64,000 nt of DNA from Pelagibacteraceae bacterium (GTDB taxonomy: Bacteria > Pseudomonadota > Alphaproteobacteria > Pelagibacterales > Pelagibacteraceae), in NCBI GenBank assembly GCA_038142265.1, contig JAYQJR010000007.1, forward strand, positions 96,061 through 160,060, given 5' to 3'. The position numbers and the translations under genes are program-made. Each line of letters begins with the position of its first letter. Position 1 is the first letter of the stretch. The notes under the pieces were generated by a model. That model saw nothing but the letters and a program-made list of their open reading frames with translations, had not been told where the DNA came from and ran no database searches. This document shows, in pieces, positions 17,440 to 62,141 of the stretch.

Positions 17440-17516
<77 letters not shown>

Positions 17517-52779: not shown

Positions 52780-52793
<14 letters not shown>
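52702..52793 (-). tRNA. tRNA-Ser(GCU)
   Basis: GGACAGG acceptor arm, anticodon loop TT-GCT-AA, long variable arm, GTTCGAATC, encoded CCA. Confidence 0.96.
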
Positions 52794-55375
<2,582 letters not shown>

Positions 55376-56125: not shown

Positions 56126-56428
56126 CTATAAGTAGTTTTTATATGATTTGTCGCGTATTTTTTTTCGCTCAATTTCAAATTTTTTTAAATTTTTAAGAGA
56201 TTTATTATGAACTCTTTTTCTCCAAAGTCTGAAGGAAGATTCTTTAAGTTCAGACCTCATTATTTTTATGACCTCTGATTCTGTCTTGCCGGTTTGTCTT
56301 TTAATATCTTCAAAAGTAATACGATCAGCCCAAGCCGCCCAAATAATCCAATTTTTACTATTTTTATCTTTTGGTTGTGGTTTGATTGTTTTTGTAACTG
56401 GTCTTTTAAAAGACTTTTTAGAAGTCAC
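56126..56428 (-). CDS. TIGR03643/DUF2805 family protein
   Basis: WAAWADRITFEDI, EVIKIMR.ELK.SSF.LWRKRV. Confidence 0.85.
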   Translation of the reverse strand: MTSKKSFKRPVTKTIKPQPKDKNSKNWIIWAAWADRITFEDIKRQTGKTESEVIKIMRSELKESSFRLWRKRVHNKSLKNLKKFEIERKKIRDKSYKNYL

Positions 56429-56907
56429 TATTTATTTTCTTTAAGAAAGTTCATCATAGTACCTGGATCACTAACATCAAATTTTCCATCTTCATCTTTA
56501 AAAATTTTGATAATGTTTCCATCATCAACATACATAGAATATCTAAACGATCTAGGACCCATACCTGATGCACTTCGATCTGAAATCATTCCCATATCTT
56601 TTGTAAATGTTCCATTACCATCAGGAATAAACTGAACATTCTTAGCTCCAGATGTAGTTTTCCATTGTTCAACAACAAATGGATCATTCATGCTAATACA
56701 ATATACTGCGTCTATTCCTAAAGTTTTTAGTTTATCAAATTCTTGTTCATAAGCTGGGAGATGATAACTTGAACATGTTGGTGTAAATGCTCCTGGTAAA
56801 GCAAATGCAACTACTTTTTTGCCTTTAAAATAATCAGCAATATTTTTTTCAACAAACTTCTTATCTTCTCTAACAACTACTTTAGAATTAGGTATTTTTT
56901 TGCTCAT
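56428..56907 (-). CDS. Peroxiredoxin (Prx5/redoxin type)
   Basis: LPGAFTPTCS..HLP, S.NDPFV, DGNG.FT, RS.RYSM. Confidence 0.94.
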   Translation of the reverse strand: MSKKIPNSKVVVREDKKFVEKNIADYFKGKKVVAFALPGAFTPTCSSYHLPAYEQEFDKLKTLGIDAVYCISMNDPFVVEQWKTTSGAKNVQFIPDGNGTFTKDMGMISDRSASGMGPRSFRYSMYVDDGNIIKIFKDEDGKFDVSDPGTMMNFLKENK

Positions 56908-57790
56908 TAATTTTACTATTGTTAATATTAAATTGTCTCATTGCAAATCTTTTTTTTTGATCATTTGTTAATTTGTCATGACATTTTGGACATGTAACTC
57001 CTTCTACGTATTTTGAAGACTGTTTATCTACAGAATTAATAGGGAGTCTACATCCAAAACACATTGAATAGCTTCCTTGTTTGGATCCGTGCTTAACTGC
57101 TACTCTTTTGTCAAAAACATAGCATTCACCTATCCAACTAGATTGGTCTTCTTTTGTATTATCTAAATAATTTAAAATTCCACCTTCAAGTTGGTAAACA
57201 TCATTCATATCTAAATTTTTTAAATGATCAGCGGCTTTTTCACATCTAATTCCACCTGTGCAAAAAATTGCTAACTTTTTATTATTTTTTCTCAAAAAAT
57301 CTTTTGAAAAATATTCTTTAAATTCTCTGAAACTATTAACTTTCGGATTAATAGCGCCTTCAAAAGTTCCGATTTCATATTCAAAAGGTTTTCTCACATC
57401 AACGCACATTACATCCTCTCTTGATATAAACTCATCCCATTCTCTTGGTTTTAAATGATGTCCTTCTCTATTGCTTGTCTTGATTTCAATTGGAACCACT
57501 TCTTTTTTAATTTTAACTTTTGGACGATTAAATGGAATAAAATTTCCTTGCGATGCGTTTGTTATATCGAATTTATCAATACTTAAAATTGAACAAGCAA
57601 AATCAGAAAAGGATGAAAAAAAATTATTTGAACCTGATAACGTTCCGTTAACACCTTCAGGAGACAAAATAATTGTTCCTTTTAATGTGTTATCAATCAA
57701 ATATTTTTTAAACTGAATTCTTAAATTTTCAGATACATTAATTGAACAAAATTTATAAAAACTAACTATATCGTACTTTTCTTTTTGCAT
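56888..57790 (-). CDS. trhO: tRNA U34 hydroxylase, UPF0176 rhodanese family
   Basis: FYKF, GTI.LS.EGVNGT, KVKIKKEVV, FCTGGIRCEKA, L.GGILNYL, W.GECYVFD.R. Confidence 0.9.
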   Translation of the reverse strand: MQKEKYDIVSFYKFCSINVSENLRIQFKKYLIDNTLKGTIILSPEGVNGTLSGSNNFFSSFSDFACSILSIDKFDITNASQGNFIPFNRPKVKIKKEVVPIEIKTSNREGHHLKPREWDEFISREDVMCVDVRKPFEYEIGTFEGAINPKVNSFREFKEYFSKDFLRKNNKKLAIFCTGGIRCEKAADHLKNLDMNDVYQLEGGILNYLDNTKEDQSSWIGECYVFDKRVAVKHGSKQGSYSMCFGCRLPINSVDKQSSKYVEGVTCPKCHDKLTNDQKKRFAMRQFNINNSKINEQKNT

Positions 57791-58416
57791 AACATTATTC
57801 CATCGCCTATGGAAATTAATGAAGTTTCAAAATAATTATCATTTTTTACATGATTATTAAACTCTTTAATTTTAAGAGTTTTTTTATCATCTGTATCTTC
57901 GGCCACCTTCCCTCTCCAAAGAACATTATCAAAAACTAATACACCATCATCAGTTATAATTTTTTTACATTTCTCGTAATAGTGAATGTAATTAGTTTTG
58001 TCTGCATCAATAAATATAAAATCAAATATAGAGCTAAGTTGATCAATTTCTTTTAAAGCATCTCCAGTAATAGATGTTATTTTGTCTAAAACACCTGCTT
58101 TTTTCCAGAATTTCCTTGCTATATCATTTGTAGAACTGTCTTTATCAATTGTGGTAATTTTACCTTTTGTGGCTAAAGCCATGGATAAGGCGCTATAACC
58201 TAAATAAGTGCCAAGCTCTAAAATATTTTTATAATTACCAATTTTAATGATTAATTTTAAAAATTCAGACTGATCAGGTGATATTTGCAAATGAGACGAG
58301 TTTGAATGATTTTTTTCATTATATTCCCTTAACTCTTTTTCTATTTGAGTCTCGTTAACACCAAACTCGTAAATATATTTGTCTAAATTGTCTGATTGTT
58401 CTAATTTTTTAAACAC
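57766..58416 (-). CDS. SAM-dependent O-methyltransferase (CCoAOMT/TrmR-like)
   Basis: LELGTYLGYSAL, FDFIFIDADK, DNVLW.G. Confidence 0.9.
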   Translation of the reverse strand: MFKKLEQSDNLDKYIYEFGVNETQIEKELREYNEKNHSNSSHLQISPDQSEFLKLIIKIGNYKNILELGTYLGYSALSMALATKGKITTIDKDSSTNDIARKFWKKAGVLDKITSITGDALKEIDQLSSIFDFIFIDADKTNYIHYYEKCKKIITDDGVLVFDNVLWRGKVAEDTDDKKTLKIKEFNNHVKNDNYFETSLISIGDGIMLCKKKSTI

Positions 58417-58419
58417 TAA

Positions 58420-59886
58420 TTATTTTAATTTATTTTTTAAAATATCATTAATCATTTGAGGGTTACCTTTGCCCTTCATTTCTTTCATTACTTGTCCTAC
58501 AAAAAAACCAAAAAGTTTATCTTTTCCAGATTTATACTGCTCAACCTTATCCTGATTAGCTGATAATATTCCATCAATAATATTTTCAATTTCTTTAGGG
58601 TCTGAAGTTTGTTTTAAACCTTTTTCTTCAACAATTTTAGAAGGGTCATTATTTGACTTAACCATTTCTTCAAAAACAGTTTTTGCGATTTTTCCAGAAA
58701 TAGTTCCGTCTTTAATCAAATTAATCATTTTTGCTAAGTTTGATGAGCTTACTGGACTTTCTGAAATTTCTTTTCCTTCTTTATTTAAAATAGCAAATAA
58801 CTCTCCCATAATCCAAGTTGCTGCTAATTTATAATCAGAGTTTTTTGCTACTTCTTCATAATAAGATGAAACTGCTTGATCAGAAATGATTACACTTGCT
58901 TCATAGTTGGATAATTTAAATTCTGAAATCAATCTTTGTTTTTTTTGATCAGGAAGCTCTGGTAAGCTTTTTTTAATAGTTTCAATATAATTTTGTTCTA
59001 ATTCCAATGGTAATAGGTCAGGATCTGGAAAATATCTGTAATCATGGGCATCTTCTTTGCTCCTCATAGATCGAGTTTCTTGTTTCTTAGTATCAAACAA
59101 TCTTGTTTCTTGATCGATTGATTTTCCTTCTTCAATTAAATCAATTTGTCTTCTAGCTTCATATTCAATTGCTTGCTGCATAAATTTAATTGAATTGACA
59201 TTTTTAATTTCACACCTAGTACCAAACTCTGAAGATCCCTTTGGTCTTACTGAAACGTTAACATCAGCTCTAAGCGATCCTTGCTCCATATTACCATCAC
59301 AAGTATTTAAGTACCTCATAATTGATCTTAATTTTTTTATATATTCGCCAACTTCCCCTGGAGATCTTAAATCTGGTTTGCTTACAATTTCCATTAAAGC
59401 AATACCTGATCTATTTAGATCAACAAATGAATTTTTTGGATCTTGATCATGAATACTTTTTCCAGCATCTTGCTCTAAATGAAGTCTTTCAATACCCACT
59501 TCTTTTGTTCCATAAGGCATATCTAAAATTACTTTTCCCTCTCCTACAATTGGATGTTTGAATTGAGATATTTGGTATCCTTGCGGAAGGTCAGCATAAA
59601 AATAATTTTTTCTATCAAATATTGAATACGTATTTATTTTAGCATTTAAGCCCAAACCTGTTTTAACAGCTTGTTCCACACAAAATTTATTAATCACTGG
59701 TAACATTCCAGGCATAGCTGCATCAACTAAGCTTACTTGTGTATTAGGTTTAGAACCAAATTTGGTAGCTGACGAAGAAAAAAGCTTAGCCTCAGACAAA
59801 ACTTGTGCATGTACCTCAAGTCCAATAATGACTTCATATTCACCTTTCTCTCCTTTTAAATAATAATCAAATTCTTTATCTGACAT
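58420..59886 (-). CDS. gatB: Asp/Glu-tRNA amidotransferase subunit B
   Basis: [33 protein letters not shown]; ATG overlaps the gatA stop. Confidence 0.97.
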
Positions 59887-61346
59887 CAAATCCACCAATC
59901 TTTATAATTTGGTTTAAAATTAATATTTTTTTCAATTGCATATGCATTGTTTAAAATAGTTTGTTCATCAAAAGATCTTCCAATTAGTTGTAGACCTAAA
60001 GGCAAATTATTTTGATCATACCCTGCAGGTATCGATATACCAGGTAAACCGGCTAGATTAGTTGGAACAGTAAATACATCGTTTAAATACATAGAGATTG
60101 GATCATCAATATTTTTTCCTATCTCAAAGGCTGATGATGGGGTTGTGGGTGTTAAAATAGTGTCTACTTTTTTAAATGCTTCATCAAAATCATTTTTAAT
60201 TAATCTTCTAACTTTCTGAGCCTTTAAATAATAAGCATCATAATAACCTGATGACAAAACATAGGTACCTATTAAAATTCTTCTTTTAACCTCATCTCCA
60301 AAACCTTCTGCTCTTGTATTTTCATACATTTCAATAAGATCTTTGCCCCCAGCTCTAAAACCATAACGAACACCATCATATCTTGCTAAATTTGATGAAG
60401 CTTCAGCTGGAGCAATAATATAATAAGTTGGCAATGCATATTTTGTATGCGGAAGAGATATCTCTTTAACTTCGCAGCCAAGTGATTTTACAATTTCAAC
60501 TCCCTTGTTCCATAGATTAATAATTTCCTTAGGCATACCATCAACTTTATACTCCTTGGGAATGCCAACTTTTAAACCCTTAATATTTTGATTTAAATTT
60601 TTACTGAACGGCTCAACTTCTTTTTGAGCAGAAGTAGAATCTTTTTGATCATGACCTGATATCACTTCTAATAATAAAGCGGCATCAGCAACATCTTTTG
60701 TCATTGGACCAGCCTGATCCAATGAGGATGCAAAAGCAACAATTCCCCATCTAGAACAACGTCCGTAGGTAGGTTTTAAACCAACTGTTCCAGTAAAAGA
60801 TGCAGGTTGTCTTATTGAACCGCCCGTATCTGTTCCAACAGTAGCGGAAGTTAAATTTGCTGCAACAGCAGAAGAAGATCCTCCTGATGAACCCCCAGGA
60901 ACTAAATCTTTATCATTTCTGTAAGGGTTAATAACATTTCCAAAGTGGCTAGTTTCGTTTGATGAACCCATGGCATATTCATCACAATTCAATTTACCTA
61001 ATAAGATAGCACCTTGGTTCCATAATTTTGATGTAACAGTAGATTCATATTGAGGCTTAAAGCCTTTTAACATTTTGCTAGAAGCTGTGGTTTGAATCCC
61101 TTTAGTGCAGAATAAATCTTTAACCGCCATTGGTGCTCCAAAAAGTTTATGATCAGGATTATGTTTTTTATCTAATTCTTTAGCTTTATTTAAAGCCTCA
61201 TCAAATGTTTCGCTAATATAACAATTTAATTTTTTTGATTTAGAAGCTCGATCAACATAGGACTTTGTAGCTTCTTCACAAGATAGTTCTTTTGATTTTA
61301 TTTTTTTAACTAACTCTGTAAGACTTAATTGATAGATCTCGCTCAT
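59886..61346 (-). CDS. gatA: Asp/Glu-tRNA amidotransferase subunit A
   Basis: [29 protein letters not shown]. Confidence 0.98.
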
Positions 61347-61633
61347 TACTCAATAACTTTCGGAACAACGTAAAAATCTTCATTATCCGCTGGTGAATTT
61401 GCAAGAATATCTTTCTTTTCATTCATTAACTTAACAATGTCGTCTCTTTTAATAAGTTCTTGTTCAACCGTTGAAGCTAAAGGTTCAACTTTTTCAATTT
61501 TAATTTCATTCAATTGTTCAACAAATTTTAAAATAGAATTTAAATCTTTAATCATATGCTCCTCGAATTTTTCATTGGAAGCAATTCTTGCTAACTTAGA
61601 AATTTTTTTGACTGTATCTTTAGTAATTGACAT
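61346..61633 (-). CDS. gatC: Asp/Glu-tRNA amidotransferase subunit C
   Basis: Start [17 protein letters not shown]; C-terminal YVVPKVIE. Confidence 0.95.
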
Positions 61634-61670
61634 TAGACTTTGATAAAAATTGCGGTAAAATAACACTTTA

Positions 61671-62141
61671 ATGGAAACTATCAACCTTTGCGAAAATCAA
61701 GACTTCTCTTCTAAAGTTGGAAAAAATTCTAGAATATTAGGGATTGATCCTGGAAAAAAAAACATTGGTATATCAGTCAGTGACCCTAATCAAAAAGTTG
61801 CAACACCTTTAAAAACTATTGTGGTAAAAAAGTTTAAAAAATTTATTGAAGAATTAAATAAAGTTATTTTAGACTATGGTATAAAAGGGATTGTAATTGG
61901 CCATCCTATTAATATGGATGGATCAGAAGGTCCTAGATCTCAATCGGCTAAAGACTTTGCACAAAATATTTCAAAAATTACAAAAATTCCTATTACTCTT
62001 TGGGATGAAAGGCTATCTAGTGAAGGTGCATTTAATAGTATGCAAGATCTTGAAATAAATACTTCAAAAAAAGTAAAAAAGTTAGATGAACATGCCGCCG
62101 CTTTCATCCTTCAAGGCTATTTAGATTATCTTAACAAATAG
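61671..62141 (+). CDS. ruvX: YqgF/RuvX pre-16S rRNA nuclease
   Basis: LGIDPG.K.IGIS.SD, WDERLSS, D..AA.FILQGYLD. Confidence 0.94.
   Translation: METINLCENQDFSSKVGKNSRILGIDPGKKNIGISVSDPNQKVATPLKTIVVKKFKKFIEELNKVILDYGIKGIVIGHPINMDGSEGPRSQSAKDFAQNISKITKIPITLWDERLSSEGAFNSMQDLEINTSKKVKKLDEHAAAFILQGYLDYLNK

Follow-up and report, generated by a model that had tools for sequence, protein, structure and literature searches.

The window, a 64,000-nucleotide stretch of a Pelagibacteraceae contig, contains a closely packed string of genes, all on the minus strand, that opens with gatC (61346..61633), gatA (59886..61346) and gatB (58420..59898) in that order. Each subunit scores above the cut-off of its NCBIfam equivalog profile: GatC matches TIGR00135 with 76.7 bits (cut-off 47.1), GatA matches TIGR00132 with 603.7 bits and also PF01425, and GatB matches NF004015 with 844.7 bits and has both the GatB_N and GatB_Yqey domains. 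The open reading frame listed for gatC is longer (61346–61684), with the profile match covering its residues 20–112, and the probable start is the ATG at 61633. After a gap of 3 nt, gatB is followed by a gene with a GTG start at 58416 (57766..58416) whose 216-residue product matches PF01596 (3.9e-60); we refer to it as OMT, a predicted cation-dependent class I O-methyltransferase resembling SafC, SynOMT and CCoAOMT, and a candidate ho5U34 methyltransferase. Next is trhO (yceA family; 56888..57790), encoding a 300-residue predicted O2-dependent tRNA U34 5-hydroxylase; its ATG lies 25 nt within the OMT gene, and this overlap (57766..57790) probably couples translation of the two. The ORF coordinates and profile matches thus bear out the layout given in an earlier note on this DNA, which described gatC-gatA-gatB, a 3-bp gap, an O-methyltransferase and a trhO gene overlapping it by 25 nt, all on one strand.

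The dense packing extends past trhO, first to a peroxiredoxin gene of the Redoxin family (56428..56907, minus strand; PF08534, 3.7e-26), for which we claim no role in the pathway discussed below and which is retained downstream of trhO only in the closer genera, and then to the last gene of the string, encoding a DUF2805/TIGR03643 protein (56126..56428, minus strand; PF10985, 1.2e-24; TIGR03643, 88 bits). The peroxiredoxin gene overlaps trhO by 20 nt and the DUF2805 gene by 1 nt, so that overlapping genes are nothing unusual in this genome. Scans for promoters and terminators gave counts no higher than those in shuffled sequence.

The identification of trhO made in the earlier note is well founded. 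The predicted protein matches NF001133 with 248 bits against an equivalog cut-off of 170, and all three domains of the family architecture, UPF0176_N, Rhodanese and Rhodanese_C, are detected, although the last of these (24.1 bits) falls slightly below its cut-off of 26.9. Among proteins of known structure it matches 4f67 (2.4e-56) and 9j5o (1.9e-36). The catalytic-cysteine loop CTGGIRCEK, from C177 to K185, is intact and invariant in alignments of 9 and 35 TrhO sequences, with C177-T-G-G-I-R-C183 unchanged over the 35. By these sequence features the protein is a bona fide member of the TrhO family that keeps its catalytic cysteine.

Other enzymes of wobble-uridine modification were also sought. 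Searches of the source genome for cmoA, cmoB and trhP (U32 peptidase) were negative, as were those of 41 Pelagibacterales for cmoB and U32 peptidase and of 201 Alphaproteobacteria for cmoB, in agreement with the absence of cmoA and cmoB that the earlier note had asked to see confirmed. In E. coli, CmoA and CmoB form cmo5U34 from the same TrhO-made ho5U34 intermediate, but they are enzymes unrelated to OMT and use a carboxymethyl donor. The small tRNA set to which the note pointed, citing tRNA-Pro(UGG), is also evident. This tRNA, a predicted TrhO substrate found by ARAGORN (17440..17516, minus strand), is the only proline tRNA both in the source genome and in a complete congener (G010), whose 32 tRNAs serve Ala and Pro with a U34 species alone and lack C34 species in the remaining boxes.

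The placement of OMT within its family is less straightforward. The note had called it TrmR-like, which is correct in that PF01596 membership, the SAM site, the metal site and the catalytic lysine are common to both proteins, but OMT is not a TrmR orthologue. Its closest relatives by sequence among proteins of known structure (phmmer) are 3cbg (3.4e-40), 3r3h (1.3e-38) and 8gxo (2.2e-37), with 2hnk and 3tr6 also among them, whereas the TrmR entries 5zw3 (9.3e-25) and 8k1f (1.9e-24) rank only about 29th, after catechol OMTs. The AlphaFold model of OMT (pLDDT 96) gives a similar order, with structural Z-scores of 32.7 for SafC, 32.5 for 3tr6, 31.7 for 3cbg and 28.6 for TrmR; its alignment with TrmR has 33% identity and an rmsd of 1.9 over 204 residues. 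From these phmmer E-values and structural Z-scores, rather than from a tree, OMT belongs to the SafC/SynOMT/CCoAOMT catechol-type subgroup, with TrmR a distant cousin. This accords with a further remark in the note, that the family includes catechol-type members: the nearest neighbours, SafC (5LHM/5LOG), SynOMT (3CBG), and the Coxiella (3TR6), Legionella (3R3H) and Leptospira (2HNK) proteins, are of that type both in sequence (3e-40 to 4e-36) and in structure (Z 31.7–32.7). The catalytic apparatus of SafC/SynOMT-type enzymes is identical to that of OMT; those with known activity use small catechols, several others are structural-genomics proteins, and none has been reported to be coupled to trhO.

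Close neighbours of TrmR have been described in Firmicutes only, by a criterion of about 1e-41 and more than 40% identity (Ryu 2018, PMC6158493); OMT, at 9e-25 and 33% identity in an alphaproteobacterium, falls well outside it. TrmR of B. subtilis (YrrM; PDB 5ZW3/5ZW4) is nonetheless like OMT in Pfam family, fold, SAM residues, the Asp-Asp-Asn and Lys set, and proposed reaction, and both genes adjoin that of a ho5U hydroxylase, TrhP1/P2 for TrmR and TrhO for OMT. In OMT, G69, S75, D91, D137, K140, D163 and N164 are conserved, corresponding to the SAM site, the Asp-Asp-Asn metal site and the lysine; the metal ligands and catalytic lysine (D137, K140, D163 and N164) are invariant among relatives, the SAM-binding, metal and lysine residues are invariant over 33 SAR11 sequences, and the ring-stacking Trp-167 is kept. 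Together with the confident model, these residues suggest that OMT is an intact enzyme. The two proteins differ at an arginine characteristic of TrmR: mapped by motif spacing rather than by residue-level superposition, with E85, D113/A114, D133, K136 and D159/N160 of TrmR anchored on D91, D119/A120, D137, K140 and D163/N164 of OMT, TrmR Arg-90 corresponds to Thr-96 (T, F, I or S among SAR11 relatives) and Arg-86 to Lys-92, and R178, in a variable loop, lies outside the map. The calculated pI of OMT is 6.15.

The conservation of the gene pair, which the note had put forward as a check, holds throughout the family. Every one of the 20 family relatives with an assembled region has the gatB-OMT-trhO arrangement, even where OMT identity drops to 39%, and additional marine contigs and named Pelagibacteraceae records, HIMB058 among them, have it too. 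At all 29 SAR11-type loci the spacing of OMT and trhO falls in the range -28 to +1 nt (values of -25/-28, -1, 0 and +1). Five family genomes have neither OMT nor TrhO, and co-loss of the two was considered and rejected; because gatB is missing there as well, these are assembly gaps. We note that SAR11 synteny is conservative in general. There is only a single PF01596 gene among the approximately 1,100–1,300 genes of the source genome, and it directly abuts trhO; since trhO would turn up beside it by chance in about 0.15% of cases, the pairing is beyond chance for one lineage, and over all bacterial lineages about one chance case is expected.

Associations of TrhO with PF01596 proteins also occur outside SAR11. 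Three proteins (P0001, P0003 and P0004), of a kind encoded in eukaryotic contigs, are fusions of TrhO with a PF01596 domain. The OMT domains of these stramenopile TrhO(YceA) fusions fall in the same SafC/SynOMT-like subfamily in trees and have the same PDB profile as SAR11 OMT (3tr6, 3r3h and 3cbg at the top; TrmR at 1e-12 to 1e-13), but they differ in being part of a single eukaryotic polypeptide rather than the product of one of two translationally coupled genes, they share only 29–34% identity with the SAR11 protein and form a separate clade, and their activity is putative. No TrhO fusion was found among the 150 closest OMT representatives, the long ones being tandem OMTs or unrelated fusions. 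Within the order to which Calothrix PCC 7103 belongs, 7 of 30 trhO loci have an adjacent, convergent OMT gene of the SafC/SynOMT-like subgroup, an arrangement present also in Rivularia. Linkage of YceA with PF01596, including gene fusion, served to find TrhO (Sakai 2019, PMC6599085), and the idea pursued here is therefore not unprecedented. The earlier note knew of no description of the linkage in SAR11. Our literature search found no paper containing both 'Pelagibacter' and 'TrhO', but the linkage in the wider sense was already in use.

Across the sampled Pseudomonadota the two genes are distributed independently. Among 251 Pseudomonadota, TrhO is present in 125 and an OMT of this subgroup in 77, with both in 40 (38 expected), and no trhO/OMT adjacency outside SAR11 was seen; a gammaproteobacterial pair was likewise absent both from these genomes and from 80 trhO loci, samples too small for exclusion. 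Among 201 Alphaproteobacteria, an OMT of this type occurs in 57 of the 134 TrhO-negative genomes and 19 of the 67 TrhO-positive ones, and is absent from the other 48 TrhO-positive genomes. In the sister SAR11 family, trhO has unrelated surroundings and an OMT of this type is lacking. Two candidates for a partner there were rejected: its PF01596 gene encodes not a TrmR-like substitute but an animal-type COMT homologue (5.6e-32) and adjoins FMO-like genes, and its 262-residue methyltransferase is a generic class I enzyme with a weak CmoB match (48–51 bits, cut-offs 209–275). The latter is only 26% identical to the methyltransferase domain that P0385 carries in fusion with TrhO. We also looked for a residue signature common to the SAR11- and cyanobacteria-linked OMTs yet missing from unlinked ones, and found none.

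Hydroxylation of U34 is an activity shown for the TrhO family, and the SAR11 protein would be expected to share it, with O2-dependent hydroxylation at C5 of U34 in the tRNAs that serve four-codon boxes: Ala UGC, Pro UGG, Val UAC, Thr UGU, Ser UGA and Leu UAG. In a putative second step, the translationally coupled OMT, as a metal-dependent catechol-type methyltransferase with its Asp-Asp-Asn metal site and catalytic lysine intact, would methylate the 5-hydroxyl with SAM as the donor, yielding mo5U34. A catechol-type active site may suit such a substrate, since the 5-hydroxyl and 4-oxo groups of ho5U may chelate the metal as catechol hydroxyls do. Both genes would be carried on the gatCAB transcript, and OMT would descend from the SafC/SynOMT/CCoAOMT-like branch of PF01596, its pairing with trhO having arisen separately from Firmicute TrmR. 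A precedent for methylation of ho5U to mo5U by a PF01596 member is provided by TrmR (Ryu 2018, PMC6158493), which acts in B. subtilis with TrhO and TrhP1-TrhP2 to form mo5U34 (Ryu 2018, PMC6158493; Sakai 2019, PMC6599085). By analogy with the Bacillus pathway, we regard OMT-TrhO as a plausible non-orthologous route from ho5U34 to mo5U34, for which the prospects seem evenly balanced. In its favor are the conserved linkage, the fusions, the second bacterial lineage, the lack of an alternative partner, the intact enzyme, the TrmR precedent and the tRNA set, and against it are non-orthology to TrmR, the lack of phyletic association, partnerless TrhO, the other contexts of relatives, the lack of a shared residue class, the pI of 6.15 and the generic nature of the overlaps.

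The main alternative is that OMT is a small-molecule cation-dependent methyltransferase acting on a catechol, a hydroxycinnamate or a similar compound, and that it sits between gatB and trhO through a historical accident, frozen in a compact genome with conservative gene order; we consider this possible, though rather doubtful. Its closest matches in sequence and in structure are all of the catechol type, the metal triad, lysine and Trp-167 are retained, and the signature Arg-90 of TrmR is missing. The independent distribution of the subfamily and of TrhO, and the frequency of overlaps between unrelated genes in this genome, fit this explanation too, and the nearest relatives outside SAR11 lie in other contexts, the close relative P0157 adjoining the homogentisate-pathway genes for HPPD, fumarylacetoacetase and GST. 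TrhO also functions alone elsewhere, not only in the sister SAR11 family but in Bartonella henselae, an alphaproteobacterium whose tRNA has ho5U34 with no further modification step and no cmo5U (PMC10965804), and TrhO without a methyltransferase is therefore a viable end state. A frozen accident does not, however, readily account for a link that has a chance expectation of about 0.15% per lineage and yet is seen in SAR11 and cyanobacteria and, as a gene fusion, in eukaryotes, nor for retention of the gene by every family member in streamlined genomes of 1.0–1.3 Mb, and no gene of aromatic metabolism neighbors the SAR11 locus.

OMT might instead work with TrhO or the translation apparatus on another substrate, such as some other hydroxylated nucleoside or RNA, or a carboxylate on a protein, which seems improbable. 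Some enzymes of PF01596 have come to act on proteins, as with the Anaplasma enzyme (PDB 4OA5/4PCA) that methylates glutamates of Msp4 (PMC4636158) and whose structure aligns with the OMT model at Z 28.7–29.2, and the rest of the gene string (gatCAB and trhO) is tRNA-related. Yet the Anaplasma enzyme (9e-21) is no closer to OMT than TrmR is, nothing at the locus indicates a specific alternative substrate, and the sole known product of TrhO is ho5U34. A complex prediction for TrhO and OMT, each with its own alignment, scored 0.00 and carries no weight either way.

Returning to the methylation of ho5U34, we suggest tentatively, and at somewhat less than even chances, that part of the orphan catechol-type group that includes SynOMT and the Coxiella, Legionella and Leptospira proteins may be tRNA ho5U34 methyltransferases that entered into partnership with TrhO on three or more occasions (SAR11, cyanobacteria and the eukaryotic fusions), and that one of the ocean's most abundant bacterial lineages would thereby decode four-codon boxes with mo5U34. 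The weight of the pathway proposal is limited by the putative function of OMT and by the fact that the fusions are a published clue. If the SAR11 pathway is real, mo5U34, so far tied to Gram-positive bacteria, would also be a product of a dominant alphaproteobacterial lineage of the sea, through an enzyme of separate origin from TrmR, at least some widespread orphan catechol-type methyltransferases would gain a physiological role, and it would become clear how a 32-tRNA genome manages with a single tRNA for the Ala box and a single one for the Pro box. The sister SAR11 family, with TrhO alone and ho5U expected, offers a natural contrast for the effect of the methyl group on decoding.

All five genes of the string described in the earlier note are borne out by the ORF map and family scans, and all lie on the minus strand: gatC (61346-61633/61684), gatA (59886-61346), gatB (58420-59898), a 216-aa O-methyltransferase gene with a GTG start (OMT, 57766-58416; PF01596, 3.9e-60) and trhO (56888-57790; NF001133, 248 bits, above the cut-off of 170). 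The gatB-OMT spacing is 3 nt and the trhO ATG lies 25 nt within the OMT gene; the tight packing extends past trhO, which overlaps a peroxiredoxin gene by 20 nt, and this in turn overlaps a DUF2805 gene by 1 nt. The TrhO protein contains the invariant CTGGIRCEK cysteine loop and matches 4F67 and 9J5O in the PDB. There is one PF01596 gene in the genome assembly (1.0 Mb, 76% complete), and a search of the same assembly for cmoA, cmoB and peptidase U32 gave no match; neither cmoB nor a U32 peptidase was found in 41 Pelagibacterales genomes, in agreement with the expected absence of the CmoA/CmoB route. We note that katG (53157-55336, minus strand) is frameshifted, with a 573-aa first ORF (53615-55336) spanning model positions 4-565 of 725 and a 130-aa C-terminal part with the peroxidase domain in another frame (53157-53549); the break marks either a true pseudogene or, in a 76%-complete genome, a mistake in the assembly. 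The next gene, of the DUF2784 type, is at 52780-53160.

Comparison with 40 relatives, 24 in the same family and 16 in a sister SAR11 family, shows that the OMT-trhO pairing is conserved, as had been anticipated. Both genes are present in 19 of the 24 family genomes and both are missing from five, from which gatB is missing likewise, so that the region is simply unassembled there; wherever it is assembled, the gatB-OMT-trhO order is kept, with an identity floor of 39% for OMT, about 43-47% for TrhO and, for GatB, about 63-70%. The block also occurs in low-GC marine contigs and in records named Pelagibacteraceae, 'Ca. Pelagibacter' and HIMB058. At 29 loci the trhO start lies -25/-28, -1, 0 or +1 nt from the end of the OMT gene; beyond trhO, the peroxiredoxin and DUF2805 genes are kept in the closer genera only. 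TrhO is encoded by 13 of the 16 sister-family genomes, in unrelated neighbourhoods, and no OMT of the window's type was found in these 16, only an animal-type COMT homologue elsewhere. This 209-aa protein (L025:1399-2028, minus strand), which matches COMT structures of rat and human at 5.6e-32, adjoins another methyltransferase and FMO-like monooxygenases. A second sister-family locus (L206:1847-3250) has a 262-aa class I methyltransferase beside a small single-domain rhodanese gene; it matches CmoB weakly, and a search of the window's family at E<=1e-10 did not find it.

The tRNA set is what one would expect if a wobble base of the xo5U type were required, and it does not tell ho5U from mo5U. 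The incomplete genome of the window has 25 tRNAs, with UGG the sole Pro and UAC the sole Val species. The complete congener genome G010 has 32, in which Ala and Pro are each served by a single species (UGC and UGG), while Val, Thr, Ser(UCN) and Leu(CUN) each have U34 and G34 species without a C34 species.

The description of the methyltransferase as TrmR-like holds at the level of the Pfam family and fails at that of orthology. The closest sequences are SynOMT (3CBG, 3.4e-40), OMTs of Legionella, Leptospira and Coxiella, and plant CCoAOMT-type enzymes, with B. subtilis TrmR at 9.3e-25 (5ZW3) and 1.9e-24 (8K1F). The predicted structure (pLDDT 96) is likewise nearer to SafC (Z 32.7), 3TR6 (32.5) and SynOMT (31.7) than to TrmR (28.6). 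We mapped TrmR residues onto OMT by the spacing of SAM and metal-ligand anchors, which is equal in the two proteins (28 residues for TrmR E85-D113 and OMT D91-D119; 26 for TrmR D133-D159 and OMT D137-D163), and therefore Arg-86 and Arg-90 of TrmR correspond to Lys-92 and Thr-96. An arginine at the Arg-90 site is also absent from the SAR11 relatives and from the fusion proteins discussed below; the metal triad and catalytic Lys are invariant. From the sequence and structure rankings, the arginine sites and the invariant metal triad and lysine, the window's protein is an intact catechol-type OMT and not a TrmR orthologue.

Links between trhO and this OMT subgroup recur elsewhere. A search for longer homologues revealed three proteins (P0001, P0003 and P0004) in which a complete TrhO is fused with a PF01596 domain. 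They come from eukaryotic contigs, where the neighbouring genes encode histone H2A, a mitochondrial carrier and a split P-type ATPase. Searched against the PDB, the OMT domains of these fusions give the same ranking of entries as the window's OMT, with TrmR at 1e-12 to 1e-13. A TrhO-profile scan of species genomes yielded 80 loci, in which OMT is upstream of trhO in all 11 SAR11-type loci, and in two cyanobacteria, Calothrix PCC 7103 and Rivularia, the gene directly downstream is a convergent OMT of this subgroup. The convergent pair (L103:5001-6572, L097:5001-6505, L144, L148, L155, L158, L163 and L169) is present in 7 of 30 trhO loci sampled from that cyanobacterial order, its OMT being closest to SafC (3.6e-75) and SynOMT (7.5e-65). 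Tree building groups the SAR11-linked OMTs in a single clade (support 0.94) and those of the cyanobacteria in a second (0.99), with the domains from the fusions placed elsewhere; the link to trhO has thus arisen at least three times.

Other observations argue against the partnership being general or necessary. Among 201 Alphaproteobacteria, TrhO is present in 67 and no CmoB was found; an OMT homologue (E<=1e-12) occurs in 19 of the 67 TrhO-positive genomes versus 57 of the 134 TrhO-negative ones, and adjacency is confined to SAR11. In 251 Pseudomonadota, with TrhO in 125 and OMT in 77, both occur in 40 against 38 expected, and no adjacency was found besides that in the window's genome; some of the TrhO-negative genomes could obtain ho5U from TrhP. 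In Bartonella, tRNA has ho5U34 and no derivative made from it (PMC10965804). The contexts of the nearest non-SAR11 OMT representatives include a site following rplK-rplA and, for P0157 (L037:4001-7402), a position directly upstream of the genes for 4-hydroxyphenylpyruvate dioxygenase (HPPD), fumarylacetoacetase and a GST, which make up the homogentisate pathway, an aromatic-metabolite setting; others lie in different surroundings. No residue class separating TrhO-linked from unlinked OMTs was found, and the calculated pI of OMT is 6.15.

For a single lineage, the probability that its only PF01596 gene falls next to trhO by chance is about 0.15%, and we estimate that about one such adjacency is expected over the several hundred bacterial families with both genes. 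The link is observed in two bacterial lineages and in a eukaryotic fusion, and set against this expectation its recurrence makes a functional trhO-OMT link in SAR11 probable. The most economical form of such a link is ho5U34 methylation, in which OMT would convert the ho5U34 made by TrhO to mo5U34. Against this count the non-orthology to TrmR and the missing arginines, together with the phyletic independence of OMT and TrhO and the viability of TrhO alone, and we hold the predicted activity on ho5U34 to be about evenly balanced. That OMT is instead a small-molecule catechol methyltransferase is a realistic possibility, though one we lean against, and action on another macromolecular substrate, for which an Anaplasma OMT reported to methylate Msp4 (PMC4636158) offers a precedent, seems very unlikely.

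A pathway from TrhO and a PF01596 methyltransferase to mo5U is already known, and TrhO itself was reportedly identified via yceA-'trmR' fusions in Phytophthora and Phaeodactylum (Sakai et al. 2019, PMC6599085). On the suggestion that the linkage is undescribed in SAR11, our literature search returned no paper naming Pelagibacter together with TrhO; the fusion clue had been published, and IMG already carries the label 'predicted O-methyltransferase YrrM' for such proteins. The novelty would lie in the enzyme, a putative ho5U34 methyltransferase from a catechol-type branch other than TrmR, its gene probably coupled translationally to trhO downstream of gatCAB in an alphaproteobacterium.

Other partners are fused to TrhO. 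The commonest long form (P0273-P0392) measures about 530-550 aa and ends in a fused glutathione S-transferase domain, with a glutaredoxin-like part in some cases. It occurs in Myxococcota, cyanobacteria, Comamonadaceae and numerous metagenomes, and hints that the rhodanese cysteine has a thiol or redox partner. In P0385 (543 aa; 23 member sequences) TrhO is joined to an unrelated class I methyltransferase of the Methyltransf_11/25 type, making this enzyme, from a different family, another candidate for modifying ho5U.
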